Virus record (IMG/VR): IMGVR_UViG_3300024992_000010
Strand: one strand, 5' to 3'
Origin: a virus
Length of the DNA stretch: 44,773 nucleotides
Below the pieces are notes generated by a model. It saw only the letters and a list, made by a program, of their open reading frames with translations. It made no database searches and was not told where the DNA came from. Both the position numbers and the translations under genes were made by a program. This document shows positions 1 through 44,773 of this stretch, in pieces (the stretch's first letter is position 1; the number at the start of each line of letters is the position of its first letter).

Positions 1-127
1 ATCACGGCAAGCCAGAAACAGGGAGGATTGCGGCGTTCAATCGTTACGCCGCGCGCTTTAGAAAGCGGGATGGAAACTCAATTTCGAGATAAATGGTTCG
101 TAGTGAGACCTGGTCGGGGAGCCATCC
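1..127. repeat. Terminal overlap: nt 1-127 are identical to nt 44647-44773 (circular closure of the contig, or a short terminal repeat)
   Basis: Read directly. Both copies run ATCACGGCAAGCCAGAAACAGGGAGG...GGTCGGGGAGCCATCC. The integrase ORF tail and intergenic motif A lie inside it. Confidence 0.95.
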
Positions 128-1673: not shown

Positions 1674-2027
1674 CTATCCCTTCCTCGCTATACGCAATAT
1701 GTTACGTATGCTGACTTTTTCACATAACTGCCGCTCCAATTTTTCCTTGATTTCGCGCGGCGAAAAATTCATCTCGATCAGCGTCTCGATATACCGATTC
1801 CGCTGATATCTCACATATGTTCTGAACCGCCTGATGGGTATTAGCAGGCGCCCGTCATCCGCAAGACTGATCTGGTCTGAATCCAGCATGCGCCACATGA
1901 TGATCAGGTTATCCACCCCTATTTTTTCGCCAATATCGATCCAGATACGTTGCAGGCCCATCGCCTGCAACTCGTCCAGCCGCGGGTCGCGTTTTTTTTC
2001 CGGGGCCGGTTCAAAGTTCAAAACCAT
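1674..2027 (-). CDS. Small HTH regulator, Mor-like (late-gene activator candidate); alternative upstream start at 2177
   Basis: C-terminal LLIPIRRF...RNRYIETLIEMNFSPREI...VSIRNILRIARKG resembles the Mu Mor C-terminal HTH region. The first 50 codons of the 167-aa ORF are low-complexity Gly/Arg-rich. The ATG at 2027 gives 117 aa, close to Mor at 129 aa. Confidence 0.4.
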   Translation of the reverse strand: MVLNFEPAPEKKRDPRLDELQAMGLQRIWIDIGEKIGVDNLIIMWRMLDSDQISLADDGRLLIPIRRFRTYVRYQRNRYIETLIEMNFSPREIKEKLERQLCEKVSIRNILRIARKG

Positions 2028-2401
2028 GCAGTTATCCTGGTACCCTCCCCCCCTGGCAGACTGATGACCCCGCTCCTGCCGACCCCCCACCCCACCGTCA
2101 TCCCGGCAGGCAGACGATACCGACACGCCAATTCCCAGTTCTGAACTTCGCTTTTCCTTATCCATTACCACTCTCAAACCCTCATGCCACCGTTGACCAA
2201 CTGCGCTTTATGGAGATAAGGCGCATTAACCTAGTTGCGGGAACCAAGATGATTTAGCCCGATATTTGTCAAAGTTACCGACACTCCGACAACCCCCAGC
2301 TTCGCCTACTCCCACCTTATATCTCTCTTCGAACATGGTCCCCCGTATATGGGTTGCGCGCACCAGAAACCCCGCGAGCGCCCCTCGATGCAGCCCTGCT
2401 T

Positions 2402-3403
2402 TTACCCCGGCTTGTTCAGCCTCTTCAAAAGGTCGCTGACTGGCGTTTTTATTTTTGCCAGGGGATTCGCACGATCGGCTTCCCGGGTCAGCTTTCTCAT
2501 GGCGAGATGATCATAGATGGCAGTGCTCTTGGCATCTTCATGTCCCATCAACCTCTGCCTGGCAATAAGGTCAACTCCTTCCTCTGCCAACTCGGTACCG
2601 AACAGGTGACGCATTGCGTGGGGATGGATCTGATCCTCCGAGATACCGCAGCGCTTGCCGTACTTCTTGATCATCTGGAGCACGGCCTTTCGGCTAAGCC
2701 GGCGCTGTTCTCCGTGGTAGTTATCGGGACTGATTCTGCGGTTCATCAGGCTTACGAAAAGCACCTGGTCTCCGTTTGGAAGGCGGCGATCGATCTGCTT
2801 CAGATCCGCATGATCTAGGTAAAGGCGGAGCAGCAGATCGGCTTCCGCGGGGATGGGCAGCTTGCGCTGCTTGTCCCCTTTCTCTACCACTTTGATCAGG
2901 AGGCGGGCTTTTCCGTCGATCTCGTCCTGGATGATATTGCTGTCGTTTAAACGTATCAGGCCTGTTACACGTAGCCCGCACCCTGCCAGCAATGCCAGAA
3001 TGGCGCCATCACGCACGCCCTCGAAGGTATTGAAATCAGGTTCCCACATCAGTTTGGCTGCGCTGGCCAGCGTCATGACTCGGGGGATTCTCCGGTTCTT
3101 CTTCGGGTACGGCAGATTTTCAGCAGGATTGCCACGGATGCGTTTTGAGGACGCCAGCCAGCTGTAAAACCCGCGAACCGCAGCCACATGAGGGCGCCTA
3201 CTTACGGGGTCACGCAACCCGATCTTATGCAGGTAGGGCCCCGTAAAGGCCAGCAGCTCATCCTGCGAGATTTCACGAAGGTCGGCGGTACCGAAATATT
3301 CAGCCATGCGCGTTAACGCCAGGCGGTAAACATGGATAGTCCGGTCGGACCTTCCGGCGTTGAGGCGCTTGAACTCGAGGAAGGATTCAATCAGCTCAAC
3401 CAT
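2402..3403 (-). CDS. Tyrosine recombinase/integrase, XerC/D-like
   Basis: 333 aa. N-terminal SAM-like core-binding region. Catalytic HPHAMRHLFGT...LMGHEDAKSTAIYDHL (H-x-x-R ... H ... Y). Confidence 0.88.
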   Translation of the reverse strand: MVELIESFLEFKRLNAGRSDRTIHVYRLALTRMAEYFGTADLREISQDELLAFTGPYLHKIGLRDPVSRRPHVAAVRGFYSWLASSKRIRGNPAENLPYPKKNRRIPRVMTLASAAKLMWEPDFNTFEGVRDGAILALLAGCGLRVTGLIRLNDSNIIQDEIDGKARLLIKVVEKGDKQRKLPIPAEADLLLRLYLDHADLKQIDRRLPNGDQVLFVSLMNRRISPDNYHGEQRRLSRKAVLQMIKKYGKRCGISEDQIHPHAMRHLFGTELAEEGVDLIARQRLMGHEDAKSTAIYDHLAMRKLTREADRANPLAKIKTPVSDLLKRLNKPG

Positions 3404-4268
3404 GCCAAGGTGCCAGCAATCCGTTAACAGGAAAGGCCAGCGCCTGACCGCAACGCGGGTTAATCCAAACCACTTCAGTACGACTTACGGTTCCTCGAGC
3501 AGCAGAAATCCGCGCCGAGGTTTCGTACCGATCCCAGGCCGCAAGCATCGAGTTATAGAGGGGGTTCGGATACCCGGATAACACAACAAAACCTTCCAGC
3601 TCGAGCAAAACTTCCAGCAGCTCAACATGGGCAGCATCGTCCATTTCGTGACGATAGGTTCGTCCCACTCCGGTTCCGCGCATCACCCGGGTTGAATGTA
3701 CATATGGTGGATCCACAAAATGGAGCGTTTCCGGTCCATCATGCTGTCTCAGTACCTTGATAGCTGATGCATTTTCTATGAGCACTCCCGATAAGCGCTT
3801 GCCGGCGCGTTCTATCGCTTCCGGATAGTAAGCCCATAGGTGCTGCGCCGTTCCATATTCGCGCCTCGTGTCGATTCGAAAACCTGTCCGGCCCTTTGTC
3901 GCTCCCGCGCTGCCGAAACCACACTGGGCCCGGACGGCCACGCGCCTGGCGCGTTCGACTGGGTCATCGGTTTCCTCATGAGCACGGATAAATTCATCAC
4001 GTGCGTAAGGAGTAAAGGCAACTTGCCTGATCAACTCTTCCCGCAAATGCTCGTTTTGCAGCACCCGGAAGAAATTAACCACGTCACCGTCCAGATCGTT
4101 ATATACCTCGGCATAGCAGCGCTCCTTTTGAAGCAGCACACCAGCTGCACCACCAAAAACCTCGGTATATATCCTATGTTCCGGAAAGAAACTCATGATC
4201 CAGTTCGCGAGGCGGAATTTGCCGCCGTGATATCTCAATGCGGGCTGAGTTACTTGTTCAGCGTTCAT
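3396..4268 (-). CDS. N6-adenine DNA methyltransferase (D12/Dam class), orphan
   Basis: LRYHGGKFRLANWI, EVFGGAAGV (AdoMet site) and the DPPY motif (HFVDPPYVHS). The start at 4268 overlaps the stop of the upstream ORF. The stop overlaps the recombinase start. Confidence 0.85.
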   Translation of the reverse strand: MNAEQVTQPALRYHGGKFRLANWIMSFFPEHRIYTEVFGGAAGVLLQKERCYAEVYNDLDGDVVNFFRVLQNEHLREELIRQVAFTPYARDEFIRAHEETDDPVERARRVAVRAQCGFGSAGATKGRTGFRIDTRREYGTAQHLWAYYPEAIERAGKRLSGVLIENASAIKVLRQHDGPETLHFVDPPYVHSTRVMRGTGVGRTYRHEMDDAAHVELLEVLLELEGFVVLSGYPNPLYNSMLAAWDRYETSARISAARGTVSRTEVVWINPRCGQALAFPVNGLLAPWHG

Positions 4269-4485
4269 GGCCGAGACAACCCTCTCCCGAATAATCGAAG
4301 TTGTCACACTTCCCACACGGAATAACCTCGTGCCCCTTGGATAGCTCATCCAGCAACATGGATTTCGCCTCTCTCGGCGTCAGCTCGCGCCCGTCGTCAT
4401 CCGTAAACACTCCCCTGAAATTTCTATCACTCCAGTTCATCAAGGCGCCCCTGACATCGAGGCACAGGTGATAACTCTTTCCCAT
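4258..4485 (-). CDS. Hypothetical small Cys-containing protein
   Basis: 75-aa ORF directly downstream of the origin region. C-terminal CGKCDNF...GCLGH. No recognised family. Confidence 0.5.
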   Translation of the reverse strand: MGKSYHLCLDVRGALMNWSDRNFRGVFTDDDGRELTPREAKSMLLDELSKGHEVIPCGKCDNFDYSGEGCLGHER

Positions 4486-10401: not shown

Positions 10402-10663
10402 TGCTCTCGCCTGCCAGCGCCATGTACGCCGCGCCGTTCAGGTAATCGTCGATGATGGGACGCCCATTCTGCGATCTGGAAAGTTTCAGAACGACCATGA
10501 ATACCCAGCCGTCGCGCTGGCTAAGAGAGTGCCCGGTAAGGGCATTGAATGTGGTCACCGCGCGAGCCATGCTGCGTTCTCCGTTCTCGCGGTCAAGCTG
10601 GTCTGCCCGCGCGGCAATTTCATCGGCGGCCGAAATGAGAATGTCTACCGCGGCATGTTTCAT
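10367..10663 (-). CDS. DUF6378-like phage protein
   Basis: 98 aa. ...RENGERSMARAVTTFNALTGHSLSQRDGWVFMVVLKLSR...DDYLNGAAYMAL is the pattern I associate with DUF6378. Confidence 0.45.
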   Translation of the reverse strand: MKHAAVDILISAADEIAARADQLDRENGERSMARAVTTFNALTGHSLSQRDGWVFMVVLKLSRSQNGRPIIDDYLNGAAYMALAGESIDDSEDNKNGG

Positions 10664-11337
10664 GCTGCCACCCTCCCCTCGTAAGCCTTACGGAGTGCCG
10701 CTCCACGCACGCGGCGGCGGGACGGGAAAATACGTTCGATTTCAGCACCTACGTCCTTCCGGCTCATGGTCAGGTATTCCATGCACGAGGCGATGCTGGT
10801 ATGGCCCAGCAGGTTTTTGAGGCGCACGAGTGCAGCCTGTGGGCTTCCCTCGCTGTTCTCGAGGAAGGTTACGGCGAACGTGTGCCGCAACCAGTGCGGC
10901 GATATCGCGGGGTCGATACCGGCCTCGATAGCAATCTCTTTCATGCGTTGCTGGTATGCGCGTTCCGACATGGCTTCGCCATTGCGCGACAGGACAAGTG
11001 GGTAAAGTTCCGGCAACTTGGAGATCGCCATACCTGCCATCTCCGCACATATACCCAGCAGGTCGCGCAGCGCATCCTGCACTTCCCCCTTCGCATGCAC
11101 CGAGAGATCACACGCCTTCTTTTTGCGGTGCTCTTTCGGGACAAATAGATATCCCGAGTTCAGCGCCGCCTGCGCATCGCCGACGGTCAACATGCTGAAC
11201 TCCTTTAGCCGCATGCCTGTCGTCAATAATAGACGCACCCAGGCATAATCCCGTCGTCCTAAGAGATCGCCCCTGCGCCGCATTGCACGGCGCAATTTCG
11301 ATTCTTCCTCATTGGTCAAACATCTGTTTCGTTTCAT
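10660..11337 (-). CDS. Small tyrosine recombinase (catalytic domain only)
   Basis: 225 aa. TGMRLKE (Arg), HWLRHTFAVTF (H-x-x-R), LLGHTSIASCMEYL (His...Tyr). No separate N-terminal core-binding or arm-binding domain. AGGAGGG Shine-Dalgarno 7 nt upstream. Confidence 0.8.
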   Translation of the reverse strand: MKRNRCLTNEEESKLRRAMRRRGDLLGRRDYAWVRLLLTTGMRLKEFSMLTVGDAQAALNSGYLFVPKEHRKKKACDLSVHAKGEVQDALRDLLGICAEMAGMAISKLPELYPLVLSRNGEAMSERAYQQRMKEIAIEAGIDPAISPHWLRHTFAVTFLENSEGSPQAALVRLKNLLGHTSIASCMEYLTMSRKDVGAEIERIFPSRRRVRGAALRKAYEGRVAA

Positions 11338-11815: not shown

Positions 11816-12280
11816 CTAGACCATCTCCTTCATCCGTGCCAGGCCTTCGAGAATCGAAGCGATCCATTCGTATGATGCGCGCTCGATCTGCAGATACTCT
11901 TCTGCATCGATGCGATCATCGGTCGCGAGCGCGCAATGTATGGCGCGGTAAAAATCCCCGCCTTCCAGTCCAATCTTGGTGATATGCGCGATGAGCGCGG
12001 TAGTGGTGAGGTTGGAGAGGTCGGGCAATGAATAACACACCTCTCCCACGGTTGCGGCAAAGGCATGGAGAACGCGTTTATCGCCGCTCATGATGGTGAG
12101 AACCACTGCGTCGGCTAGGGTCGGTATGTGATGGCTTCTCTCGGTCGCGTTGGCCTTGTTGTACAACGTGCCCGTAGCGACAACCATCTTCCCCGCCAGC
12201 TCTTCTACTCCTCCCGGATATTCATGAACAACATCATGAAACGCTTGCTGGACGTTCTTCTGAATCGGTGCTCGCCCCAT
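11816..12280 (-). CDS. CII-like phage regulatory protein (CP76-type)
   Basis: 154 aa. Sits directly after the cro-like gene. ...GTLYNKANATERSHHIPTLADAVVLTIMSGDKRVLHAFA resembles the phage CII/CP76 family. GGAGGAGGG Shine-Dalgarno. Confidence 0.5.
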   Translation of the reverse strand: MGRAPIQKNVQQAFHDVVHEYPGGVEELAGKMVVATGTLYNKANATERSHHIPTLADAVVLTIMSGDKRVLHAFAATVGEVCYSLPDLSNLTTTALIAHITKIGLEGGDFYRAIHCALATDDRIDAEEYLQIERASYEWIASILEGLARMKEMV

Positions 12281-25568: not shown

Positions 25569-25985
25569 TCAGCCTTCCTTCAGCGTCATATCAAACGCCA
25601 CCCAGCCATAGGGGTGATCAAGCTGCTGGCTCTGGCGCCAGCTTGTCAGCGTGAGAGAACCTAGTTCCGGAGGCAAATTTCGGGTAAACGCCTTTATTTC
25701 GTCGATCATGACGCCCTCCGCGTCTTCAGTCTCGGAAGGGAGCGCTGTTTCCGCAACGGCGAGCTGCGCCACTACCAATACCCGATGCTCTCCATCCCGC
25801 GTCATGCCCCCAAGGTAGTGGCTGTAATTTCCCTCGCTGGCTGATAGAACCGTATAGATACCGCGCTTGAGCTCCAGCAGAGGACGTGCGGCAAAATCCT
25901 TCAGGTCGCGGGTGACAATACGGGACGGATACATCCCGGCCAGCGTGGATTTGATGGCATTCATGCGGATGGAGAGTGCGCTCAC
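25569..25985 (-). CDS. Neck/tail-terminator candidate (assigned by position)
   Basis: 138 aa. GTGA overlap with the gp10-like gene. No motif recognised. Confidence 0.35.
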   Translation of the reverse strand: MSALSIRMNAIKSTLAGMYPSRIVTRDLKDFAARPLLELKRGIYTVLSASEGNYSHYLGGMTRDGEHRVLVVAQLAVAETALPSETEDAEGVMIDEIKAFTRNLPPELGSLTLTSWRQSQQLDHPYGWVAFDMTLKEG

Positions 25986-26461
25986 TTGCCGAATACCTCA
26001 CGCAGGCCAGCGTCGACGCCCTCATTCAGAAGTGCGAATACCCGGCTTCTCATCTGCTCCGCGGCGGGGCGCATGAATGGCTGCGCCCGGGTACCGCGAC
26101 GGCTGATCGCACGGGCGATGAGAAAGGCTCTATGTCGTGCTTCCGCACCGCTTAACCCCAGCACACGCTCCACCCAGGGTTGCAGATTTGCGGACGGAAC
26201 AAAATGCGGACTGGTGCCTCCTTCAACGTAGGGCGCGTAGTTGACACCAGGTGATACCCGCCAGTGCAGGGGAGCTATGCGGGAAGCAAGAATAGAATTC
26301 GTCAGGGTACTGAATGCTTTGGGTGCGAAGGATTTGGCAGCCCGGGCGACTTCCTGCGCGCCACGTGACAGGAACCGCTCCAAGTTGCGCTCCATCACAT
26401 CCGGAGCGGTTTCGAATGCCTGCTGCGCTTCCTTGCTGTCGACTCGAAATCGGATATCCAT
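25982..26461 (-). CDS. HK97 gp10-like head-tail joining protein
   Basis: 159 aa from the ATG at 26461. ...VNYAPYVEGGT...RAQPFMRPA is the gp10-family pattern. Confidence 0.7.
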   Translation of the reverse strand: MDIRFRVDSKEAQQAFETAPDVMERNLERFLSRGAQEVARAAKSFAPKAFSTLTNSILASRIAPLHWRVSPGVNYAPYVEGGTSPHFVPSANLQPWVERVLGLSGAEARHRAFLIARAISRRGTRAQPFMRPAAEQMRSRVFALLNEGVDAGLREVFGK

Positions 26462-26486
26462 GGCGCGCCAATTTACGCAGATCAGC

Positions 26487-26513
26487 AAGCCAGAAACAGG
26501 GAGGATTGCGGCG
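26487..26513 (-). promoter_or_regulatory. Conserved intergenic element, copy B (candidate late promoter/activator site)
   Basis: The 27 nt AAGCCAGAAACAGGGAGGATTGCGGCG are identical to nt 9-35 (= 44655-44681). They lie between the methyltransferase stop and the gp10-like ATG. Confidence 0.55.
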
Positions 26514-26520
26514 GGATGAA

Positions 26521-27285
26521 CTACCAGTTACAGATGATCAATTCAGCTCGATTGGCGCGTCCCTGCACACCACCGACGGTATATTTGATATGGGCTGATT
26601 CAGTCCTGAATTTCCCAAATGCCTGGCGCATCTCGGGAATATCGTTGACGCTGATGATTGCCTTTCCCTTGATTGACCGGGCCATCTCTGCCATACGGCC
26701 GTATTGATCGAGCTCGAATTGAACCCCGTATCCTTCGGTTCCCCAATAGGGAGGATCAAGATAAAAAAGAGTATGGGGACGATCGTACCGCTCGATGCAT
26801 TCGGTCCAGTTCAAGCGCTCGATAGTGACGCGAGCGAGCCGTAAATGTGCCGCGCTGAGATCCTCTTCCAAACGCAGCAGGTTGAGCCGAGGTGGCGAGG
26901 TGGTTGCTGTACCAAGTGATTGATTTTCGATGCGAGCCCCAAAGCATAGTTTTTGCAGGTAATAAAAACGTGCCGCCCTCTGAATATCAGTGAGGGTTTC
27001 AATAGGGGTAATTTGTTGCCATCGAAATATTTCCCGGCTTGACAGTGCCCATTTGAACTGACGTATAAATTCTTCCAGGTGGCGCTGTATCACTCTGTAA
27101 AGATTAATCAACTCCCCATTGATATCGTTCAATACTTCAGCTTTGGACGGCTCCTTCATGAAGAACAGCGCAGCTGCGCCGGAGAATGGCTCGACGTAGC
27201 AGGTATGGGATGGAAATAACGGCAGGATTCGTGCAGCCAAGCGCCTTTTGCCGCCAATCCACGGGATGATGGGCAAGGATGTCAT
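26521..27285 (-). CDS. N6-adenine DNA methyltransferase (D12/Dam class), second copy, orphan
   Basis: 254 aa. IIPWIGGKRRLA, EPFSGAAALFF, and DPPY in LFYLDPPYWGTEGY. Confidence 0.85.
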   Translation of the reverse strand: MTSLPIIPWIGGKRRLAARILPLFPSHTCYVEPFSGAAALFFMKEPSKAEVLNDINGELINLYRVIQRHLEEFIRQFKWALSSREIFRWQQITPIETLTDIQRAARFYYLQKLCFGARIENQSLGTATTSPPRLNLLRLEEDLSAAHLRLARVTIERLNWTECIERYDRPHTLFYLDPPYWGTEGYGVQFELDQYGRMAEMARSIKGKAIISVNDIPEMRQAFGKFRTESAHIKYTVGGVQGRANRAELIICNW

Positions 27286-27382
27286 TGCGAGCCTCTTTCA
27301 TGGTTATGCTAGACTCCCGCTGCCGTGTCGACAGGCGGAAAGCCTTGGCTATGGCTCACAGCTATATCCTGTGGGTTATTGT

Positions 27383-27414
27383 GGCCGGATTCATGCGTCA
27401 ACATGGATCCGGCC
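27383..27414. other. Strong 12-bp-stem hairpin between the 93-aa ORF and the methyltransferase gene
   Basis: GGCCGGATtCATG-cgtcaa-CATGgATCCGGCC. There is no clear U-tract on the minus strand. Confidence 0.5.
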
Positions 27415-27426
27415 GCTTTCTAAACT

Positions 27427-27708
27427 CTACCGCCTCCTGACTCTCAATGTCGCAGGAACAACTGGCTTATTGATGCCGGACTCGACTATGCACCGAAAAT
27501 GATAGTCCGCGCCATCCACCCCACCCACTATCTGCTGCAGCACCTTGGCTCCCGATATTTGCGGATCCCCCGAGCGCATAGTGTCGGGATCGGAATCTGC
27601 ACCCGAGATCACATCAACAGTGATTTCCGGATTCGCGATCGTCTGCGCGATGGCTGAAAAATCGAACGTCAGGACAATGCTTTCTTCTGGATCCTTGGAT
27701 GCGAGCAC
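27427..27708 (-). CDS. Small beta-rich virion-associated candidate
   Basis: GTG at 27708 with an AGAGAGGA Shine-Dalgarno. 93 aa. The KDPEESIVLTFDFS...VGGVDGADYHFRCIVESG... pattern is seen next to fibre genes in other phages. Confidence 0.5.
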   Translation of the reverse strand: MLASKDPEESIVLTFDFSAIAQTIANPEITVDVISGADSDPDTMRSGDPQISGAKVLQQIVGGVDGADYHFRCIVESGINKPVVPATLRVRRR

Positions 27709-27719
27709 GCGATCCTCTC

Positions 27720-30326
27720 TTAGTGAACAATGCCGGCTATATAACCGCGAGGCCTGGCAGCCGAAATAAAGCGCGAGTCGCTGGCAAAAGTAATCGATGT
27801 GCTTATTTCGCCAGTGCTGCAATCATTCGCTTGGCTCGACATCGAAACCTCCAAAATAATAGGGTCGCCCACGCCGATTGATGCGCTGCTACCTGCATTA
27901 GACTGACTTGATGACGCAGCAGCGAGAATATGAGCCTGAACAATTGCAGAAGCCGCTGCCACGTTGTCTTGAACGCTGGGGGCCGCAATGAGGGACCCGC
28001 TTATCGATATTGCCCTGCCGGTTCCTTCATTTGCTTGAGCCGCGTTTGCAGGGGTTAAGGTAATGCCTGAGCTGATCGAGATCGCCCCAGCAGAGGCTAC
28101 GTTGCTTTGACTGCAATTCTCTCCCAGTACCAAGCTGGCCTGGCTTATCGCTCCTGGGCTGCTTGTGTTGCCCTGGATGCTTGAATCCCCGACCAGATTT
28201 GCCGGAGCTTCAGAAGTCTTGAAGAACCACACGCCCGGCTCATTAACGTGTGTTGCTTCCGTGCTGTCCAGCACAACGAACGCGCCCAGAGTCGGCACAA
28301 ACTTCATCTTGCCGAGGACGCCATTGATATGACCGCCCCTCGGCGTCAACCCTGCCGGGTCTATCTGATAGGCTGTCCAGGTGGTCGACGCCCATCCGGT
28401 ACCGGGGTCGTAAGCTGGCAGCGGGATATAGAAAACCGTGCCGGGATTCGTTCCGTTCGAATCCCACAGCCAGATGCGGTCGTTTGCATCATCGTATACC
28501 GCCCCGTACCGTGTGGCATACACAGTCGGTGTGAGAACCATCGGGAAAGGGTTGCCAAGCTCATCGATCACCTGGATCGGCGTATCGGCGGTTGACCCGG
28601 TCGCAGTTACCGGCATTACCGCGATTTCAGAGGTCTTCCCAGAGAGAGTTGCACCTTGTCGATACAGCATTCCCCGCTTGGAGTCGTGAACCATGAATCC
28701 ATCGAATATGACGCTATTCGATGTGACGCCTATCTTGGTGCAAGTGTCACGTGCGGTTCCGCCTCGGATATCACCGAAGGTGTACTTGTACCAATTGGGG
28801 AAGCCAGACGCCCCGCCCATGGTGAAGTAGCACACATCAGTACCACCCTCATTCACATAGGCCGATGCACCTTGCTTATGATCGAGCGTGTCTATCGGGT
28901 AGCCGTCGACCAGATCCCGCCGGTTATGCCACCCGCCTGAACCGAGCCTCGCAACGTTATATCCAGTGCCGTTGCCCCCGCCCACCTTATTGGGGTCAGC
29001 AACATGCATGTCGAAAGCGAAAGGCCCCACATGCCGGGTTACCCGAGGATCCGCAGTCACAAGCTCGGTGAATGCGTCTCCACTGTTCGCCGCGGCGCCG
29101 CCGAACGTAACGAACACATCCTGGTTATAGAGATATTGGTTGTTGGCGTATGTGTGGCTGGATTGGGGTGCATCCTTCGAAGGAAGCAGCAGATCCGGGT
29201 CAGCTGCATCGATCTTTGTCGGAAGGCAGGCCCTGTCCCACAAGCCCGTATCTCCATTCCAGACGTAAAGCTCATCGCCAGTATAATTCGCGTGGCCACC
29301 ACCCCAGAGCAGCAGGCGCGCTTTCTTCTCATCCCACCCAAAACTGGACCAGGCATAAACCACAGAGGCCTGATTGCCCGGATCTACAGCCCTATCACCC
29401 GGGAGAACGGCCGCGTCATAAAAGGAGTTCAGGTTGGCCTGAACCCATTGGTTCAGGGGTGTTGACCGGAGCAGTCCCTTGAGGCGCGAATAAGGATCGG
29501 TGGACCCAGTACCGCCCAAATTCGCTTGAACGCAATTCGCAACCGTGAGGGTTTGTACTTGTGTAATTGCACCGGCTGAACCGGCATTTCCCTGCATGCA
29601 ATTCGCGCCGTGAAACGCAGTGTCTACGGTAACCGCCCCGGTCCCGCCGGCGTTTCCCTGATTGCAGCTCGATCCGGTAAGAGTTACCGGAGGCGCAGCG
29701 ATCCGGAATGTAACCAGGTTCATAGACCACGGGACAGATATCCCTTGCATGTTCCAGGTCGCGGTTACCGATCCAGCCGCCCCAAGGTCCAGTAGATAAG
29801 CTTCTGCGGCATACCAGTATGGCGTGTAAGCTCCGCCGGATGGAACCGCGAATCCGCCGAGAGGACCGCGCAATGCGTCATCCGGCTGCGAGTTTGCCGT
29901 ATTGATCATCACGATGCCGGTCTCGTTATTCGTCTCGGTCGTGAGGCTTCCACTCGACGGCGAGGATGATGTCCCGCTATTGCTTACCGCCGAACCGAAT
30001 TCCAGTGTTCCTGAGCTGTCGCGAAGCTCGAATACGGCAATGCTCCGGGCAGAACCGCTCGACATATTTGCCGTTACGGTTAAAGAACCCGAGTTCTTCG
30101 CTATACACCACGCCTGCTGGATAGTCTCAGTAATGTCAGCATTCGTTACCTTTGAGCCCGCTATTACAAACCAGGTATTACCATCCGAGTCGGTAACGCT
30201 GCTTAGGTTGGCGCCAGTATTCCAATGAATCTCCGCATCAAGTAGATCCCCAGCAGTTGCGGTAAAGGTTACCGATCCGCTGGGGATTGATGACGGCGGG
30301 ACGTACTGTACGAGCGAACGCGACAT
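27720..30326 (-). CDS. Large repeat-containing protein with a central beta-propeller-like region (fibre or receptor-binding candidate)
   Basis: 868 aa. About 9 copies of a ~20-aa unit (C/S)xQ(G/A/S)Nxx(G/S)xGAI(T/S) lie at aa ~215-275 and ~700-850. The centre has Kelch-like strings (LLLWGGGHANYTGDELYVWN). Confidence 0.55.
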   Translation of the reverse strand: MSRSLVQYVPPSSIPSGSVTFTATAGDLLDAEIHWNTGANLSSVTDSDGNTWFVIAGSKVTNADITETIQQAWCIAKNSGSLTVTANMSSGSARSIAVFELRDSSGTLEFGSAVSNSGTSSSPSSGSLTTETNNETGIVMINTANSQPDDALRGPLGGFAVPSGGAYTPYWYAAEAYLLDLGAAGSVTATWNMQGISVPWSMNLVTFRIAAPPVTLTGSSCNQGNAGGTGAVTVDTAFHGANCMQGNAGSAGAITQVQTLTVANCVQANLGGTGSTDPYSRLKGLLRSTPLNQWVQANLNSFYDAAVLPGDRAVDPGNQASVVYAWSSFGWDEKKARLLLWGGGHANYTGDELYVWNGDTGLWDRACLPTKIDAADPDLLLPSKDAPQSSHTYANNQYLYNQDVFVTFGGAAANSGDAFTELVTADPRVTRHVGPFAFDMHVADPNKVGGGNGTGYNVARLGSGGWHNRRDLVDGYPIDTLDHKQGASAYVNEGGTDVCYFTMGGASGFPNWYKYTFGDIRGGTARDTCTKIGVTSNSVIFDGFMVHDSKRGMLYRQGATLSGKTSEIAVMPVTATGSTADTPIQVIDELGNPFPMVLTPTVYATRYGAVYDDANDRIWLWDSNGTNPGTVFYIPLPAYDPGTGWASTTWTAYQIDPAGLTPRGGHINGVLGKMKFVPTLGAFVVLDSTEATHVNEPGVWFFKTSEAPANLVGDSSIQGNTSSPGAISQASLVLGENCSQSNVASAGAISISSGITLTPANAAQANEGTGRAISISGSLIAAPSVQDNVAAASAIVQAHILAAASSSQSNAGSSASIGVGDPIILEVSMSSQANDCSTGEISTSITFASDSRFISAARPRGYIAGIVH

Positions 30327-30333
30327 CTAGAAT

Positions 30334-30717
30334 TTAAGTCGGCTGGCCGCTGGTGTAAGTCAGGGACGGGAAATTGATCGTGTTTCCACTGGTAACGACC
30401 TGGTCGCTCGTTTCATCCGTAACCCACAATACTTTTCCTACGTTATCGGTAAAAGCGATATGCAGGTTTGGAGTCGCACCAGATCCGGCAGATGCCGTTC
30501 CGCTCTTAGCGGTGGTCGTTAGGACTCGCGGCGCGTTGTCGGCCCCAGAAAGAGTGAAATCTCCCGATGCCATGACGACTGAGCAAATTGCATTGCCAGT
30601 CACCGTCGCGTAGCTGTCACCTGCTGCGTATGCCTTGAGCAACAGCATACGAAGTACATTGTTCTTAATCGCATTGAGGCCGCCGTCCAGGACGTCGGCG
30701 TGAGCATATTTGGCCAT
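30334..30717 (-). CDS. Hypothetical beta-rich protein
   Basis: 127 aa. CAGGAG Shine-Dalgarno. First gene after a hairpin terminator. Confidence 0.5.
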   Translation of the reverse strand: MAKYAHADVLDGGLNAIKNNVLRMLLLKAYAAGDSYATVTGNAICSVVMASGDFTLSGADNAPRVLTTTAKSGTASAGSGATPNLHIAFTDNVGKVLWVTDETSDQVVTSGNTINFPSLTYTSGQPT

Positions 30718-30741
30718 TTATAGCTCCTGGTAAAGGAAAAG

Positions 30742-30761
30742 GAGCGCCATGGCTGGCGCTC
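30742..30761 (-). terminator. Intrinsic terminator candidate
   Basis: Minus strand reads GAGCGCCA-gcca-TGGCGCTC followed by CTTTTCCTTT. Confidence 0.55.
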
Positions 30762-30782
30762 TTTATATGACCTGCCTTGGAC

Positions 30783-31448
30783 TTAGGCTGCGGCTTGATC
30801 GGCTGCTGCCTTGGCTTGGGCCGCAAGTCTCTCATCCCGAATCTTCTTCAGATCGGCGATGGTGCCCCCATCCAGACTATCCTGAAGCCAGGCGAACTGT
30901 GCCTCGGTCATGTTGAACTTATGCCCATGAACGGCAAAAACCGTGCCATCCGCGTTGTGAGCGGTCAACGATACCCCGACCAGCAAACGACCTTCTTGAA
31001 CTTTATCTTCCTGCTGCATTTTCATTTCTCCACAGTTAAGTTTTTGGGCACCATTGCCCCCTACAACGGCGGCACCTTTATTTCTCCATCGGTACCGCTT
31101 TACAACTATCCGCCCCCCTGATTTTTGCCTGAGAGCGAATCCTTCCATCCCCCAGCCCTTCTTCGGATCTGGGTTCGTAAGATGATCCTTGATGTCCTCG
31201 TGCTCTTCGCGGAAGGGACGGTCGCCCTTGCGCCAGAAGCAGGCCCCTTTGAATTCGAACACCCAATTTTTGATTGCTATCGTCGTCACACCGCGATAAG
31301 GCAAATTGTCTGGAAAGTGCCTATAGTTGAGGTAGCGTATGAGGCCAGATCCAAGACCAGTTTTCCTGTCCGGCAATACAATCCACTCAATCGTTGAGGT
31401 CCCGCTTTGCCAGTGAAAATCGATGGGAGGAACACCAACAGGGGTCAT
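30783..31448 (-). CDS. Hypothetical 221-aa protein translationally coupled to the endolysin
   Basis: ATGA overlap with the endolysin stop. No TM and no motif recognised. The C-terminus is an Ala/Gln-rich helix. Confidence 0.5.
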   Translation of the reverse strand: MTPVGVPPIDFHWQSGTSTIEWIVLPDRKTGLGSGLIRYLNYRHFPDNLPYRGVTTIAIKNWVFEFKGACFWRKGDRPFREEHEDIKDHLTNPDPKKGWGMEGFALRQKSGGRIVVKRYRWRNKGAAVVGGNGAQKLNCGEMKMQQEDKVQEGRLLVGVSLTAHNADGTVFAVHGHKFNMTEAQFAWLQDSLDGGTIADLKKIRDERLAAQAKAAADQAAA

Positions 31449-31957
31449 CCCGCCTTTTTCCCTTCACATATTGCCCGCTCCTCTGCCCGTCTTTTCACCA
31501 GGCCTGGAAGTACCTTTCTGCTGGGCCCATATTTGAATGCCTCGATTCGTGCGCATGCTTCGGCATACCGCTCGGAGTTGATGAGATCGATCAGGTTGGG
31601 CGGCTTTCCCGGTGCAGCTTTGCGGCAGAATGTGGGAACGCCAACGTTGTACGCCAGGCGCACGTAGGCTTCATATTCATACTGGTACAGCGGCACGGTA
31701 ACGCAACGCCTGACTCCGGCGGCATAGACTCCCTCGATCTCATCCAGCAGCCTTACCAGTGAGCGCGCGGGCGTGGTTTTGTCGCCCATCCTGACGCCGG
31801 CGGTGGAGCCGAATCCGATAGTTGGCACGTCGCCGGGCACGGGAATGTAGGCCTCCTCCCGGTAGTCCTCGTGGACCGCAATTCCTACCAAGGTGGAGGC
31901 GGCCAGCACCATCATGGCAACAGTGGCGCGGGCCTGGGTCGGAGTCGGCTTGATCAT
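31445..31957 (-). CDS. SAR endolysin (GH24 lysozyme, P21 R-like)
   Basis: 170 aa. Weakly hydrophobic N-terminal segment ATVAMMVLAASTLVGIAV. Then EEAYIPVPGDVPTIGFGST, carrying the Glu/Asp/Thr catalytic pattern. Confidence 0.8.
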   Translation of the reverse strand: MIKPTPTQARATVAMMVLAASTLVGIAVHEDYREEAYIPVPGDVPTIGFGSTAGVRMGDKTTPARSLVRLLDEIEGVYAAGVRRCVTVPLYQYEYEAYVRLAYNVGVPTFCRKAAPGKPPNLIDLINSERYAEACARIEAFKYGPSRKVLPGLVKRRAEERAICEGKKAG

Positions 31958-31992
31958 CTCAACAGCGCCTCATGCTGTGCAGCACGATCCAA

Positions 31993-32277
31993 TTATCCAT
32001 GCTCCTCCAGGCACTCCAGCTGTGCCTTCACGTCACTCTTTGGATCATCGCTTTTTATACCAACGCAAGGATGGTCGGATTGCGCGGGAGCCGGAGTCAT
32101 CTTTTGAATCTGCTGTTTCAGCTTCGGATGATTCTCTTGCGGAGCTGCAATATCGACGGGCGGGGAAACCGGTATGGGCTTTTGCTCACTCGGTGGGGCG
32201 GACATGGGTTTTTGCTCACTCAGTGGAACAGTACAAGCCGCCAGAATGATGGCGGCGATCAAAAATGCGTATCGCAT
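31993..32277 (-). CDS. Pro-rich lipoprotein (o-spanin-like)
   Basis: MRYAFLIAAIILAAC lipobox. Tandem PSEQKP repeats. Two further Cys residues. The start overlaps the stop of the upstream TM/coiled-coil gene. Confidence 0.6.
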   Translation of the reverse strand: MRYAFLIAAIILAACTVPLSEQKPMSAPPSEQKPIPVSPPVDIAAPQENHPKLKQQIQKMTPAPAQSDHPCVGIKSDDPKSDVKAQLECLEEHG

Positions 32278-32594
32278 CACCTTCTCCTTAGTAATTGATG
32301 AGCAATCCGGTCCAACTTTTCATTGAACTCGCGCATCGTTTCGCGATTTTCCTGACTCGTCTCCCTCTGATCTTGCCGGAGAGATTTGATATCATCTTCC
32401 AGCCGCTTATTCGTCTGTTCCTGATAAACCTCACCGCGCTTGATGCCTGTGAGGTCATTCTGGATCGTGTTGTATGTGGCTATCCCAGACGCCAACAATC
32501 CGCTGATGCTCAGGATGCCGCTGAGCGTAAGTGTGAAGTTGGAAGCGCCCTTGCGATGCGGCTTTTCATCTTCCACTTTTTCTCCATTTACCAT
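32277..32594 (-). CDS. Single-TM, coiled-coil membrane protein (i-spanin-like or class III holin-like)
   Basis: 105 aa. Charged N-terminus, TM FTLTLSGILSISGLLASGIATY, highly charged helical C-terminus. Confidence 0.55.
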   Translation of the reverse strand: MVNGEKVEDEKPHRKGASNFTLTLSGILSISGLLASGIATYNTIQNDLTGIKRGEVYQEQTNKRLEDDIKSLRQDQRETSQENRETMREFNEKLDRIAHQLLRRR

Positions 32595-36222: not shown

Positions 36223-36333
36223 GATGACCTCCGTTGGGGTCCGTGCCGCGGGCGATCAGAGGAAGGGCGAGCGAGCCAGCTGCTGATTACCCGCGGTGGA
36301 CTGATCGGGATAATCGGGTAAAGCTCAAGACAT

Positions 36334-36352
36334 AAACAGGGAGGATCACGGC
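36334..36352 (-). promoter_or_regulatory. Conserved intergenic element, copy C (diverged)
   Basis: AAACAGGGAGGATCACGGC shares the 13-nt core plus CGGC with copies A and B. It lies between a terminator and the capsid gene. Confidence 0.5.
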
Positions 36353-36429
36353 ACGTAAATGCACCAATGCCTGCTATAGCTGAAGCAGCAAGGAGATAGA
36401 GATGGCGCTAACAGGGCGTTCACAGGGTT

Positions 36430-36448
36430 ATCCACAGAAAATGTGGAT
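36430..36448. promoter_or_regulatory. Inverted repeat containing a consensus DnaA-box sequence
   Basis: TTATCCACA (36428-36436) and ATCCACA-gaaaa-TGTGGAT. The half-site resembles the origin iteron core CGTGGAT. Confidence 0.4.
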
Positions 36449-36460
36449 GGTATGGGCAAT

Positions 36461-36489
36461 AAAAAAGCCCGCCTCGAGCGGGCTTTTTG
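36461..36489. terminator. Bidirectional rho-independent terminator
   Basis: AAAAAAGCCCGC-ctcga-GCGGGCTTTTT, 16 nt after the stop at 36505. Confidence 0.85.
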
Positions 36490-42033: not shown

Positions 42034-43682
42034 ACCGATGCCTCCATCATGTTGCCGGGCTCGGGAACACGATCGCCCAACAGTTGCCCCCGAGATTGGG
42101 TGCGGTACCCGATTACCGCCGGCACATCTTCCGCGCCATGAGTCACCAGTGCCCACACGCTGGCGCAGGCCGCGTCGAACAGGTCATCTCCCAGTTTGGC
42201 GTTCGCCATTTTGTAACTGGCATAACTCGCCTTAGTGGCCACAGCCTTGATATTCCCCAGTTGCCGCACGAACGCCACCCAATCTGGTGATCCAGATACC
42301 GCGGCTGCGGGGGGTAGCCAAGTAGTGTTAGCGGCCTCTTTGGCTTCCGCGATATCGCGGCTATCATCGAAATAGGGGATTGCCGCCTGGCCGTTGTGGA
42401 ACGTGGCCCGCAGCGCCGTAGCCATGCCATGCTTGATCATGCCTTCGAAGCGAATGGGGGAGAACGGCCATCCGGTCCAGGCGGTTGCAGTACTCTGCCC
42501 ATCGCTGATCGTGCGGCGATCGATATCCGTAAGTCCGCGGGAGAATAAGCGATCGTTCAAGCTGGTAAGCATTCCCAGGCCATATGCATCTCCCATGGCG
42601 TAATCCGGACGGAAATAGTCCCATAGCCCCAGGAGGTCCATTTCTACCACCTTGTCATCCGCGCCGGCTGGCCAGCTTTTTACGAATGGGAACGTCACGT
42701 AGTTGCCGATCTGTTCGGAAACCACCAACGCCGATTTCGAGGCCGTGAGGCTCTCTCCATGCCCGCTGTGATCGTAGCCAAACGCCAGTAACCCGCGCTT
42801 CTTGTAGCGCCCGCCTGGCATAGGCTCGGCGATTTGCATACGCGCCTGCAGGCCAACGGAAATAGCCTTGCGAATGAATTTTTCCCAGATGTGGTTTTGC
42901 GCTGAGACGTTCTTGCACAGGAATTGGCGGATGAACTCTCCCTCCGGCAGCTGGGCGCGCATTTCCAGCATGAATGCCTGGTTGAGTATTCCCATTTCCA
43001 TGCCCAGGTAGACATTAACGATCGGCAACAGGTGATATTGCTTGGAGTCGATCAACTGCTGGAGCACGTCGGCTCCCTTGAAAACGCCTGTTACCCGGAT
43101 CTGCGGCTTGAATGAGATGGCTTTATCGGCTCCCATCCGCCGGGCGCCGCCCAGCATTGGCAGGAACCGGGAAAGCAGCCTGTCTGCCGGCATGTCGTCG
43201 ATCTCCTCGATAGAGGCGTAGCTGATCGCATCGCCGTCAATCTGGCTCATGATCCCGTAGGCACTGGCCTTGCTGCCGTTTACAAACTGATATTTTGTGT
43301 CGGAGAGCTGCTCGCGGCCGCTTTTGTGGACGATATAACCTCGCAGCATCGGCGATCGCCGGATGGCGTCAGTGTGGTAATTCAGGTTGGCCTGCGCCTG
43401 CTGCAGCCGCGGCGCCACAATGCCTAGCTCCTGGGATGCCATGGTCGCGTTATGTTTGAGCGCGTGAAGCTCTTTTACTGCAGTTTTTCCGGTGCGCCGG
43501 CAGGAAACGTCGATGGTGTTGGGATTTGCATCCATCTCCAGGCATTTCAGAACCTGCACCGGGTCGAGTTCGACGTTATGCACATGCTTGTGCCATAACG
43601 CGTGATCATCCTTGTAGCGCAATAGCTCCTGCTCAGCGCGGTATGCGACGCGCGCTCGTTCGCTGGAACTGACGCGAATCAC
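42030..43682 (-). CDS. terL: Terminase large subunit
   Basis: 550 aa. Walker-A-like SCRRTGKTAV. Position and size fit TerL. The GTG start overlaps the upstream stop (GTGA). Confidence 0.75.
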   Translation of the reverse strand: MIRVSSSERARVAYRAEQELLRYKDDHALWHKHVHNVELDPVQVLKCLEMDANPNTIDVSCRRTGKTAVKELHALKHNATMASQELGIVAPRLQQAQANLNYHTDAIRRSPMLRGYIVHKSGREQLSDTKYQFVNGSKASAYGIMSQIDGDAISYASIEEIDDMPADRLLSRFLPMLGGARRMGADKAISFKPQIRVTGVFKGADVLQQLIDSKQYHLLPIVNVYLGMEMGILNQAFMLEMRAQLPEGEFIRQFLCKNVSAQNHIWEKFIRKAISVGLQARMQIAEPMPGGRYKKRGLLAFGYDHSGHGESLTASKSALVVSEQIGNYVTFPFVKSWPAGADDKVVEMDLLGLWDYFRPDYAMGDAYGLGMLTSLNDRLFSRGLTDIDRRTISDGQSTATAWTGWPFSPIRFEGMIKHGMATALRATFHNGQAAIPYFDDSRDIAEAKEAANTTWLPPAAAVSGSPDWVAFVRQLGNIKAVATKASYASYKMANAKLGDDLFDAACASVWALVTHGAEDVPAVIGYRTQSRGQLLGDRVPEPGNMMEASV

Positions 43683-44629
43683 CGTTGGCCGCCGCTTTCC
43701 TGCTGATACTCGACCAGGATAGGATCGGTATCGGTCTGTTTATTGGCTCGCATGACTTTTTCGGCCATCGACTCGAGTATCTGCATGGTGCGTTGCCGGT
43801 AAGCATCCACACCCTCCCGGGATTCCTGTTCATGGGCAAGGCGGCCTACCTCCTGGTCTTCAGACTCGATAACTTTCTGGGTCATCCCCATATCAGCCAG
43901 GGACAGATTGGCGCGGGTGAGCAACTCGCCGAGAGGCCGAAATAAAGGGTGAGCGGATATATCCTTGATGATTTTGCGATCGCCATGCTCATCAATGTAT
44001 TCCGCGATCACTAATCTCTGGCTTTCCTTATCTATGTACCATTGCGGGGCCTCGATCTTTACGCCATCCCCTACAATCGTTTGGATAATCTGCTGCACCA
44101 CGGCCAGGACCGACGCCTGAAGATCGGAATAAATACCCATCAAATGCTTGGGATTGCGCTGCTCGAAGGCGGCGTGATGCAGCATGAACAATTCAGTTTT
44201 TTTAACGCAAGCAGGCTGCGAGGCACAAAAAATGCGATTGACATCGCACGTCACGCAAAAGGCGTAACCATCAGGCTTGGCAGGGAAATAAGTTGCGGTG
44301 CGGGCCGATAGCCCATGTTTCATCGCGTTGAAGCGCGTGCGCTGTGATTCTTCTTTGGTAGGATGCCCTTCCAGGTTAGCGGCTGTTGCCGCCTTCCCTT
44401 CTTCCGTACGTGGGCCGGTGGCATTCGCCCAGGCCTTCATCAGGCCCTTTTCCCAACCCACCTGCTCGCATTCCGTGCCGCAATGCGGGCACTCGCCGTG
44501 ATAGGTGAAAGGGTGATGTGTCAGATCAGGAGTATCTTCAATACGTGACGGCTCAGCCTTGAACGTGCGATAGCACGGCGAGCAGTAAAAGGTAATCTCT
44601 GAAAGGGGCTTGGAGCGGTCTATAGCCAT
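43679..44629 (-). CDS. Zinc-ribbon protein at the head of the packaging module (small terminase candidate by position)
   Basis: 316 aa. CSPC...CPHC, and further CVTC...C. NAMKHGLSA motif. Acidic coiled-coil C-terminus. No Shine-Dalgarno. Confidence 0.35.
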   Translation of the reverse strand: MAIDRSKPLSEITFYCSPCYRTFKAEPSRIEDTPDLTHHPFTYHGECPHCGTECEQVGWEKGLMKAWANATGPRTEEGKAATAANLEGHPTKEESQRTRFNAMKHGLSARTATYFPAKPDGYAFCVTCDVNRIFCASQPACVKKTELFMLHHAAFEQRNPKHLMGIYSDLQASVLAVVQQIIQTIVGDGVKIEAPQWYIDKESQRLVIAEYIDEHGDRKIIKDISAHPLFRPLGELLTRANLSLADMGMTQKVIESEDQEVGRLAHEQESREGVDAYRQRTMQILESMAEKVMRANKQTDTDPILVEYQQESGGQR

Positions 44630-44646
44630 GGTGCGCAGTATTGCGT

Positions 44647-44773
44647 ATCACGGCAAGCCAGAAACAGGGAGGATTGCGGCGTTCAATCGTTACGCCGCGC
44701 GCTTTAGAAAGCGGGATGGAAACTCAATTTCGAGATAAATGGTTCGTAGTGAGACCTGGTCGGGGAGCCATCC
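44647..44773. repeat. Second copy of the 127-nt terminal overlap
   Basis: Identical to nt 1-127 by direct comparison. Confidence 0.95.
44655..44681 (-). promoter_or_regulatory. Conserved intergenic element, copy A (also present as nt 9-35)
   Basis: Identical 27-mer to copy B. It lies in the 60-nt gap between the serine recombinase stop and the ATG at 44629. Confidence 0.55.

Follow-up and report, generated by a model that had tools for sequence, protein, structure and literature searches.

A conserved element of about 30 bp as the probable upstream half of factor-dependent late promoters in a group of temperate Nitrosomonadales phages

Location and sequence of the repeated element

We analysed a 44,773-nucleotide (nt) stretch of viral DNA (IMG/VR record IMGVR_UViG_3300024992_000010; the whole stretch is called the window below), in which a repeated element of about 30 bp is found at the head of three blocks of virion genes. 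Nearly all genes of the window are on the minus strand, and the three copies of the element, all of them intergenic, lie on this coding strand, where copies 1 and 2 read alike as CGCCGCAATCCTCCCTGTTTCTGGCTTGC. The copies are as follows.

44652-44681 (= 6-35 at the other end), minus strand: copy 1, CGCCGCAATCCTCCCTGTTTCTGGCTTGCC, weight-matrix score 45.6 bits; heads the packaging/head operon
26484-26513, minus strand: copy 2, 41.1 bits; heads the tail block
36324-36353, minus strand: copy 3, TGCCGTGATCCTCCCTGTTTATGTCTTGAG, 38.2 bits; heads the protease-capsid gene

An exact 29-nt pair, 7-35 and 26485-26513, is the top direct repeat of the whole genome, and the copy at 36325-36353 is 79% identical to it. 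Bases 1-127 equal 44647-44773, indicating that the assembly is circular; 9-35 and 44655-44681 are therefore one physical copy, and there are three distinct copies in total. The original prediction had reported identical copies at 26487-26513 and at 9-35 (= 44655-44681), a diverged copy at 36334-36352, and one orientation for all three. Each of these points was borne out, as was the count of three distinct copies, and the identity was extended to 29 nt.

The 13-mer AAACAGGGAGGAT occurs exactly at all three sites and nowhere else. When up to two mismatches were allowed, five matches were listed, the terminal overlap contributing one duplicate, where chance predicts 0.96. A 30-nt weight matrix was built with training sites from related genomes only, the window sites being excluded. 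It scored the three sites at 38-46 bits and the rest of the window at 12 bits or less, and its maximum on 30 random genomes was 15.5 bits. The three-copy repeat is beyond chance, and it is common to the whole phage group described below. The consensus, cGCC-N5-TCCTCCCTGTTT-N2-G(G/T)CTTG, spans about 30 bp and is asymmetric, as is the core TCC(T/G)(C/T)CCTGTTT; inverted arms, GCC(A)...(T)GGC, are weak, outer, only 3-4 bp long, and gone from the copies upstream of capsid genes.

The original prediction also placed each copy just after an accessory gene or terminator and just before a structural block, and the annotated surroundings agree. Copy 1 lies 8 nt past the stop of a large serine recombinase gene (44-1663; Resolvase, Recombinase and Zn ribbon) and is followed by a gene for a 316-amino-acid (aa) protein, a putative TerL of 550 aa, a portal-like gene and a head-morphogenesis gene. 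Copy 2 lies 8 nt past the stop of a D12/Dam methyltransferase gene (26521-27285), ahead of a tail-completion/Neck1 gene (phrog_5) and further tail genes. Copy 3 follows a strong intrinsic terminator (36489-36461) at a distance of about 110 nt and precedes a gene encoding a Mu-like-protease/capsid fusion.

36461-36489, minus strand: intrinsic terminator; closes the packaging/head-accessory operon, upstream of copy 3

The early region resembles that of lambda and has CI-, Cro- and CII-type regulators. Searches of PDB sequences with the 550-aa and 316-aa proteins gave nothing useful, nor did PHROGs and Pfam for most early genes.

Conservation of position in related genomes

The sole phage relative in GenBank is Microcystis phage vB_MaeS-yong1 (MT855965, L061; yong1 below), with 38% capsid identity. 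Many more relatives are found in IMG/VR and in GTDB genomes, including prophages of Nitrosovibrio sp. Nv6 and Nv17 and Nitrosospira sp. Nsp1, and metagenome-assembled genomes of Gallionella, Sulfuricella and Hydrogenophilales. The identity of these hosts points to Nitrosomonadales-type Betaproteobacteria as the host clade.

The element was found at equivalent places in about 25 related Nitrosospira, Nitrosovibrio and Gallionella prophages and in yong1. It stands, in unchanged orientation, upstream of the orthologue of the 316-aa gene (class 1, as copy 1) and upstream of the capsid gene (capsid class, as copy 3). Its position, orientation, and register to a downstream hexamer and to start codons are kept among relatives with only 40-60% protein identity. 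A scan of module boundaries in related phages, proposed with the original prediction as a check, thus finds the motif at the equivalent intergenic positions. In many relatives a hairpin and T-run directly adjoin the element on its 5′ side, as in ggggttttttattgCGCC. In true prophages no other feature comes before copy 1 inside attL, and read-through from the early operon therefore cannot supply it.

Among the compared relatives, the tail-class copy (as copy 2) is present only in the window, Nv6 and Nsp1. Where it occurs, head and tail genes are separated by extra genes, which in the window include those for an endolysin, an 868-aa open reading frame (ORF) and Dam, and in Nv6 and Nsp1 by a terminator as well. 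In the other relatives the tail-completion gene adjoins the preceding gene with no intergenic gap. Some relatives carry a further copy deep in the tail region (L008, at about 20000; L011, at about 8300).

The gene order of yong1 is rearranged, its cassette of integrase, 163-aa ORF and recombinase lying on the opposite side of the CI region. This phage, the only cultured relative, was deposited as a cyanophage, and all genome-resolved relatives found are prophages or contigs of Betaproteobacteria; it may be worth checking which host yong1 has. At 36428-36449 of the window, some 100 nt upstream of the capsid-class element, there is a DnaA-box-like inverted pair of 9-mers, TTATCCACA-N5-TGTGGATAA, also present upstream of the capsid-class element in L004, L006, L007, L019 and L027. 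Both boxes are perfect in the relatives; of the two in the window just the first is, and it is the sole perfect DnaA box there, DnaA boxes not being enriched in the window overall.

A -10-like hexamer at a fixed distance

In all three window copies a -10-like hexamer lies 18 nt after TGTTT (17 nt after TGTTTN).

44637-44643, minus strand: -10-like hexamer of copy 1, CAATAC or, shifted downstream by one base, AATACT; the ATG of the 316-aa gene follows after 7 nt
26470-26475, minus strand: -10-like hexamer of copy 2, TAAATT; 8 nt before the ATG at 26461
36310-36315, minus strand: -10-like hexamer of copy 3, GATTAT; predicted transcription start near 36303

No sigma-70 consensus promoter, with a TTGACA-like -35 at 16-18 bp from a TATAAT-like -10, was called at any of the three copies, and none has a -35 consensus. 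The register was analysed in 23 distinct sites, with positions counted after TGTTT. Positions 2-8, (T)G(G/T)CTTG, are almost invariant, and positions 9-18, the spacer between element and hexamer, are variable. In the hexamer at positions 19-24 (nAnnnT), A2 is present in 20 of the 23 sites, T6 in 18, and both in 18. The five exceptions (CAATAC, CGATAC, GGATAC) become AATACT or GATACT, and gain A2 and T6, when shifted one base downstream. In adjacent registers the two bases occur together in 0, 6 and 2 of the 23 sites. A peak of A2 and T6 in a single register is the mark of a -10 element at a fixed distance from an upstream site. The earlier description of a -10-like hexamer 17 nt after TGTTT(C/A) without a -35 therefore held, the register being kept in 18 of 23 sites and, after the shift, in the other five.

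All sites also have a conserved G(G/T)CTTG(A/C)C at positions 3-10 (44659-44652, 26491-26484 and 36331-36324 in the window). The CTTG(A/C)C within it resembles a displaced TTGAC -35 and lies in the spacer, where just 7 nt separate it from the hexamer. It may belong to the site of a DNA-binding factor or be a contact of the polymerase. As a true -35 paired with CA(C/G)CAT as -10 it was rejected, because transcription would then begin within conserved codons of the first late gene, past the only start codon available to that gene.

Starts and leaders of the downstream genes

The genes that follow copies 1 and 2 begin close to the hexamer.

43679-44629, minus strand: first late gene, 316 aa, in the position of a small terminase; ATG, no Shine-Dalgarno sequence, predicted leaderless
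25982-26461, minus strand: tail-completion gene; ATG at 26461, no Shine-Dalgarno sequence, layout TAAATTggcgcgccATG like that of the first late gene

About 15 orthologues of the 316-aa gene, from 83% down to about 40% amino acid identity and including yong1, all start with ATG and have no Shine-Dalgarno sequence. The ATG lies 6-8 nt after the hexamer in most of them, and 9 nt after it in the most divergent, L058. Examples of this layout are AATACTgcgcaccATG, TATTGTgcggcacATG, TACTGTgcggcaATG, GATAATcggcagcATG and TAGTGTgcggtaATG. The N-terminus MA(I/K)DR is conserved among the orthologues, and no in-frame start was found farther upstream of the ATG. Between the window and its relative L005, substitutions from codon 2 onward are synonymous, which indicates that this ATG is the real start of the gene. 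Read most simply, the sequences predict a transcription start at or beside the A of the ATG, so that the mRNA would be leaderless. If true, a conserved leaderless first gene would be unusual for a late operon. A search of the literature on this phage group and on leaderless late operons found nothing useful.

In Nv6 and Nsp1 the tail-class copy precedes a leader of about 28 nt that has no Shine-Dalgarno sequence. The capsid class has a predicted leader of about 81 nt with a GGAGG Shine-Dalgarno sequence before the ATG at 36222. In this capsid leader (about 36223-36303, minus strand) the blocks CAGTCCACCGCGGG or CCAACCTGAAAAGG, and (CA)GCTCGCTCGCYC, are kept in divergent relatives, and there are hairpins specific to clades. 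No consensus fold of the leader was obtained, as the clades align poorly. It may be a structured leader that controls capsid translation.

Concerted change of the element within genomes

The sequence of the element differs from clade to clade and is common to the promoter regions of one genome.

Window clade: ATCCTCCCTGTTT..GGCTTGC
L011, L019, L023, L027: TTTCGTCCCTGTTT..GGCTTG(A/C)C
L008, L013: CCAGCCTGTTT
L009, L010: CCCCGTGAAACSGCTTGC
L012: CCGCCCTGCAAATGGCTTGA
L022: AAACCCTKCCGTTTTTTTGTC
L029, L030: GCCATTCCCCTAGTAGTG
yong1: CTTCCCGTWKYCCTGC

In a cross-genome matrix, the class-1 element had its best match in the capsid-upstream region of its own genome or clade. It agreed with that of its own genome at 20-27 of 32 positions. 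Agreement was as high as 28 of 32 within the clade of the window, Nv6, L023 and L027, and 13-22 of 32 against other clades. Such a match within genomes is as expected for a genome-specific DNA-binding factor, and the clade-wise variation suggests a phage factor that co-evolves with its site. In yong1 the end of GTTT lies at -33 from the ATG, equal to its position in the window.

A candidate late regulator

One small gene stands out in the comparison of nine genomes.

1674-2165, minus strand: candidate trans-acting late regulator, 163 aa; conserved disordered N-terminus, helical C-terminal half

This ORF had been read as 1674-2027; members of its family are about 165 aa long, which makes 2165 its probable start. 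All nine of the genomes have it, yong1 among them, and within the DNA available it is the sole small non-structural protein of which this is true, early-region coverage being incomplete for several of the relatives. The usual cassette consists of a tyrosine integrase, the 163-aa ORF and the serine recombinase, and lies just upstream of the class-1 element. In L020 and L022, which have no recombinase, the 163-aa ORF directly adjoins that element. Its product is the best candidate for a phage late factor.

The AlphaFold model of the protein has a disordered N-terminus and six confident helices in the C-terminal half. The disordered part is Gly/Arg-rich and has the conserved family motifs GVGGRQ, GGGGYQ and KKRDPRLDEL. 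The family comprises 417 representative clusters at 50% identity, with a sharp drop-off in score. It has no Pfam model, and none of 80 homologues has a precomputed Pfam domain; a few members give weak matches to the helix-turn-helix (HTH) models HTH_33 and HTH_32. Foldseek matched the protein to two-HTH proteins, none significantly. Its sole significant viral structural match is an unnamed protein of 179 aa, presumably the yong1 homologue. The last helix reads SERHISNL in the clade with the GTGAAAC motif and SIRNILRI or SLRHISRL elsewhere; the window pairs SIRNILRI with ATCCTCCCTGTTT, and the L009 type pairs SERHISNL with CCCCGTGAAAC. This difference is only suggestive, because any gene of one genome would co-vary with the motif.

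The same ORF had been called Mor-like, and the yong1 homologue was named 'middle operon regulator' by its depositors. Neither label was upheld. The Pfam Mor model PF08765 matched none of 50 close and none of 50 distant family members, even at E values up to 1-10, and it was found in all true Mor homologues. Mor was found neither by comparing the family profile with PDB sequences nor by a Foldseek search of the PDB. In hhalign the family reached a probability below 1% against Mu Mor or C alone, and 1.2% (E 0.042) against an alignment of Mor and C. The only region aligned was the 'vYIP' strand with the C-terminal HTH (DGRLLIPIR..QRNRYI..HTH and GGQVYIPRG..RD.RI..HTH), which is topologically equivalent in the two.

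Between the tyrosine integrase gene and the 163-aa ORF, the non-coding region 2166-2401 (minus strand) is conserved above its flanking genes among relatives with 42-73% protein identity. The conserved blocks are GGCGCAAC(Y)CA, the almost invariant GCAACT-N7-ATATCGGGCTAAATC, and CGCAACTA. There is also a palindrome or hairpin, AATGCGY-N14-AAAGCGCAATT, with a few compensatory changes, and the region has no Rfam match. It may be a regulated promoter or leader of the candidate regulator gene.

Integration site and neighbouring genes

The genome has three site-specific recombinases, one large serine and two tyrosine, and two D12-class adenine methyltransferases; the five genes are at 44-1663, 2402-3403, 10660-11337, 3396-4349 and 26521-27285. 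The attP core, window 109-124 (plus strand cctggtcggggagcca), matches the 3′ end of tRNA-Asn(GTT) over 16 nt and lies within the 3′ end of the large serine recombinase ORF, so that integration alters the C-terminus of the recombinase. Related att sites were found in L035 (12034-12109), L024 (about 2690) and L025 (about 4186). The prophages of Nv6 and Nsp1 have as attR an intact tRNA-Asn that adjoins a truncated recombinase gene, and their attL retains the last 26 or so recombinase codons beside the class-1 element. Many independent provirus contigs stop at recombinase residue 517-520 or thereabouts. The 127-nt terminal overlap has its inner boundary at 127, 3 nt beyond the attP core, which ends at 124. 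This suggests that the assembly graph branched here into the integrated and excised forms and that the contig was cut at the branch.

The gene block 26521-32594, between the head-adaptor and tail-completion genes, is without homologues in most relatives, and the tail-class copy comes right after it. It holds a lysis-like cassette (an endolysin, 31445-31957, and a DivIC-like coiled-coil protein, 32277-32594), the 868-aa ORF, a Gp77-like adaptor and the Dam methyltransferase. The 868-aa ORF has no matches in Pfam, PHROGs or PADLOC.

Discussion

The three copies are probably the upstream halves of factor-dependent late promoters, lacking a -35, of a temperate siphovirus-like phage of Nitrosomonadales. 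Each promoter would consist of the asymmetric element of about 30 bp, which would cover about -52 to -23 and so stand in for the -35, and the weak nAnnnT hexamer 18 bp after TGTTT. From this architecture and its conservation we infer where transcription starts, that it depends on an activator, and which factor is involved. Host sigma-70 RNA polymerase would be unable to use the late promoters unaided. A phage DNA-binding protein made from the early or middle operon, most likely the 163-aa product of 1674-2165, would bind the element and recruit or stabilise the polymerase as a class-II activator does in the manner of Mu Mor/C. Transcription would start 6-8 nt past the hexamer. In the packaging/head operon and in the tail block this would put +1 at the A of the ATG or next to it, giving leaderless mRNAs, and the capsid gene transcript would have a leader of about 81 nt and a normal Shine-Dalgarno sequence. 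The virion modules are split by terminators and inserted accessory genes, so each module needs its own copy of the promoter.

Several observations weigh against this proposal. The -10-like hexamers are weak, and the conserved CTTG(A/C)C in the spacer could mean another architecture. The leader of about 28 nt in Nv6 and Nsp1 makes the leaderless rule not universal for the tail class. As to the factor, no DNA-binding family matches the 163-aa protein significantly, and its putative link to the element is drawn from conservation and synteny; another conserved regulator is possible, such as the CII-like protein 11816-12280, which yong1 also has.

The asymmetry of the core would suit recognition of the type made by sigma region 4 better than binding by a dimeric activator. 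An alternative or phage sigma-like factor, or a sigma appropriator, could then read CCCTGTTT as a non-canonical -35, with no classical activator acting on sigma-70; the strict 18-bp spacing to the hexamer and the identity or near-identity of the element inside one genome are consistent with this. However, no protein of the window matches models of sigma-70 region 2 or 4, Foldseek gave no significant sigma match for the 163-aa candidate, and by eye the element does not fit the generally known consensus sequences of sigma-54, sigma-32, sigma-28 or extracytoplasmic function (ECF) sigma factors. We regard such a factor as unlikely. It is more doubtful still that the element is an operator, at which a repressor silences the late promoters in the lysogen and host polymerase otherwise works unaided. 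The overlap with the -35 region, the presence of the element at all late promoters and the CI-, Cro- and CII-like regulators of the phage would accord with an operator, but it leaves the absent -35 unexplained. With no -35 and a weak -10, unaided promoter activity should be very low, and no similar site occurs in the early-control region (about 12.3-13.1 kb) or elsewhere in the genome.

Action at the level of RNA was put forward as an alternative with the original prediction. The transcribed CCUCC, present in all three window copies, would as an anti-Shine-Dalgarno sequence mask ribosome-binding sites, or the element would be a processing site in read-through transcripts; in the circular form no terminator stands ahead of copies 1 and 2. 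We rejected the anti-Shine-Dalgarno idea and consider an RNA role of either kind very improbable. Relatives replace CCTCC by TCGTC, CCAGC, TCATC or CCCCC while CCTGTTT and GCTTG remain, and two of the three genes, those after copies 1 and 2, have no Shine-Dalgarno sequence to pair with. Predicted RNA folds of the copies are not significant (z = -1.6, -0.3 and +0.7), the core is unpaired in copies 1 and 2, and there is no Rfam match at gathering thresholds. In prophages, moreover, copy 1 is at attL, where no phage transcript arrives from upstream. Almost no weight can be given to the copies being a mobile or recombination repeat, a site for packaging, or duplicates that arose by chance and play no part in transcription. 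Copy 1 does lie about 75 nt from the attP core, near recombinase and terminase-region genes, but that core is a different, 16-nt tRNA-Asn sequence, on which ground an att or pac site was rejected. Recombination among three direct repeats would delete virion modules, and the position, orientation, and register to hexamer and start codons are conserved in relatives.

Three further candidates were tried and set aside. Plus-strand ORFs behind GGGAGGA (28-195 and 26516-26707) differ between copies in spacing and start codon, and both are antisense over genes. For a promoter of a phage RNA polymerase, the only large proteins conserved in relatives are the primase, putative TerL, portal and capsid, and the 868-aa ORF is unique to the window and without matches. 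TTGC-N6-TTGC repeats of the lambda CII type are not present.

To return to activator-dependent late promoters, this kind of regulation is well known; the cis element and the family of the candidate regulator are hitherto undescribed. We suggest tentatively that the 163-aa proteins may form a new family of late factors, with a site of about 30 bp that replaces the -35, leaderless operons, and co-evolution of factor and site, whether as remote relatives of Mor/C or as an independent invention. The C-terminal part would then, judging from the model, be a double three-helix domain, and the range of the family would be prophages of ammonia- and iron-oxidising Betaproteobacteria together with yong1. 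If the proposal is true, a complete late-gene switch is in hand, with its cis element defined, its start point predicted and one candidate regulator named. It would serve a large group of temperate phages, as yet uncharacterised, that infect nitrifiers and iron oxidisers, hosts whose phage regulation is virtually unstudied. The natural motif variants (ATCCTCCCTGTTT, CCAGCCTGTTT, CCCCGTGAAAC, CCGCCCTGCAAA and CCCCTAGTAGTG) are paired with variant candidate regulators, which makes specificity swaps possible, and the motif is of practical use for annotating late operons and prophage module boundaries in these genomes.

Comparison with known late-gene systems

In lambdoid phages Q acts by antitermination from one late promoter, and terminators are read through. 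The present phage is like them in being temperate and in having an early region with CI-, Cro- and CII-like regulators. A separate promoter copy for each module after a terminator or insertion argues against processive antitermination of the Q kind.

The late promoters of P2 and P4 are activated by Ogr and Delta, zinc-finger activators, at TGT-N12-ACA dyads near -55. As here, several late operons each have a conserved activator site and a poor -35, and the activator is a small phage protein. Unlike in P2 and P4, neither a TGT-N12-ACA dyad nor a zinc-finger activator was seen here, no test having been aimed at them. The lambda promoter PRM is activator-dependent, and its cI transcript starts at the A of the AUG. 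The predicted layout of an ATG 6-8 nt after a -10-like hexamer, with no Shine-Dalgarno sequence, is like that of PRM, which however drives a lysogeny gene and has the repressor itself as its activator, whereas the predicted leaderless gene here is the first of a late packaging operon.

There are parallels with phage Mu, in which Pm, Plys, PI, PP and Pmom are activated by Mor or C, have a -10 and no -35, and are used by sigma-70 holoenzyme (PMC2582627, PMC4390567, bioRxiv 10.1101/2025.05.02.651988). The promoters proposed here likewise have a recognisable -10 and no -35, an element over the -35 region and one site common to several late promoters, and the gene for the candidate activator is, as in Mu, at the end of the preceding transcription unit. 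The Mor and C sites of Mu are imperfect dyads of 16 bp centred at -43.5 (PMC2582627, PMC4390567). In contrast, the present element, which would cover about -52 to -23 and stands at a constant 18 bp from the -10, is about 30 bp long and asymmetric, and its centre falls near -40 when the A of the ATG is taken as +1; unlike Mu, the present phage is not transposable. Thus, of the original proposal of late promoters of the Mor/C type, the part that stands is that of promoters lacking a -35 and dependent on a factor, for which the motif at equivalent boundaries, the hexamer in fixed register, the abutting terminators and the start codon without a Shine-Dalgarno sequence at the predicted transcription start all speak. 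Membership of the Mor/C family found no significant support, and the element is not a 16-bp dyad. By analogy, the system plausibly works in the way of a class-II activator of the Mor/C type.

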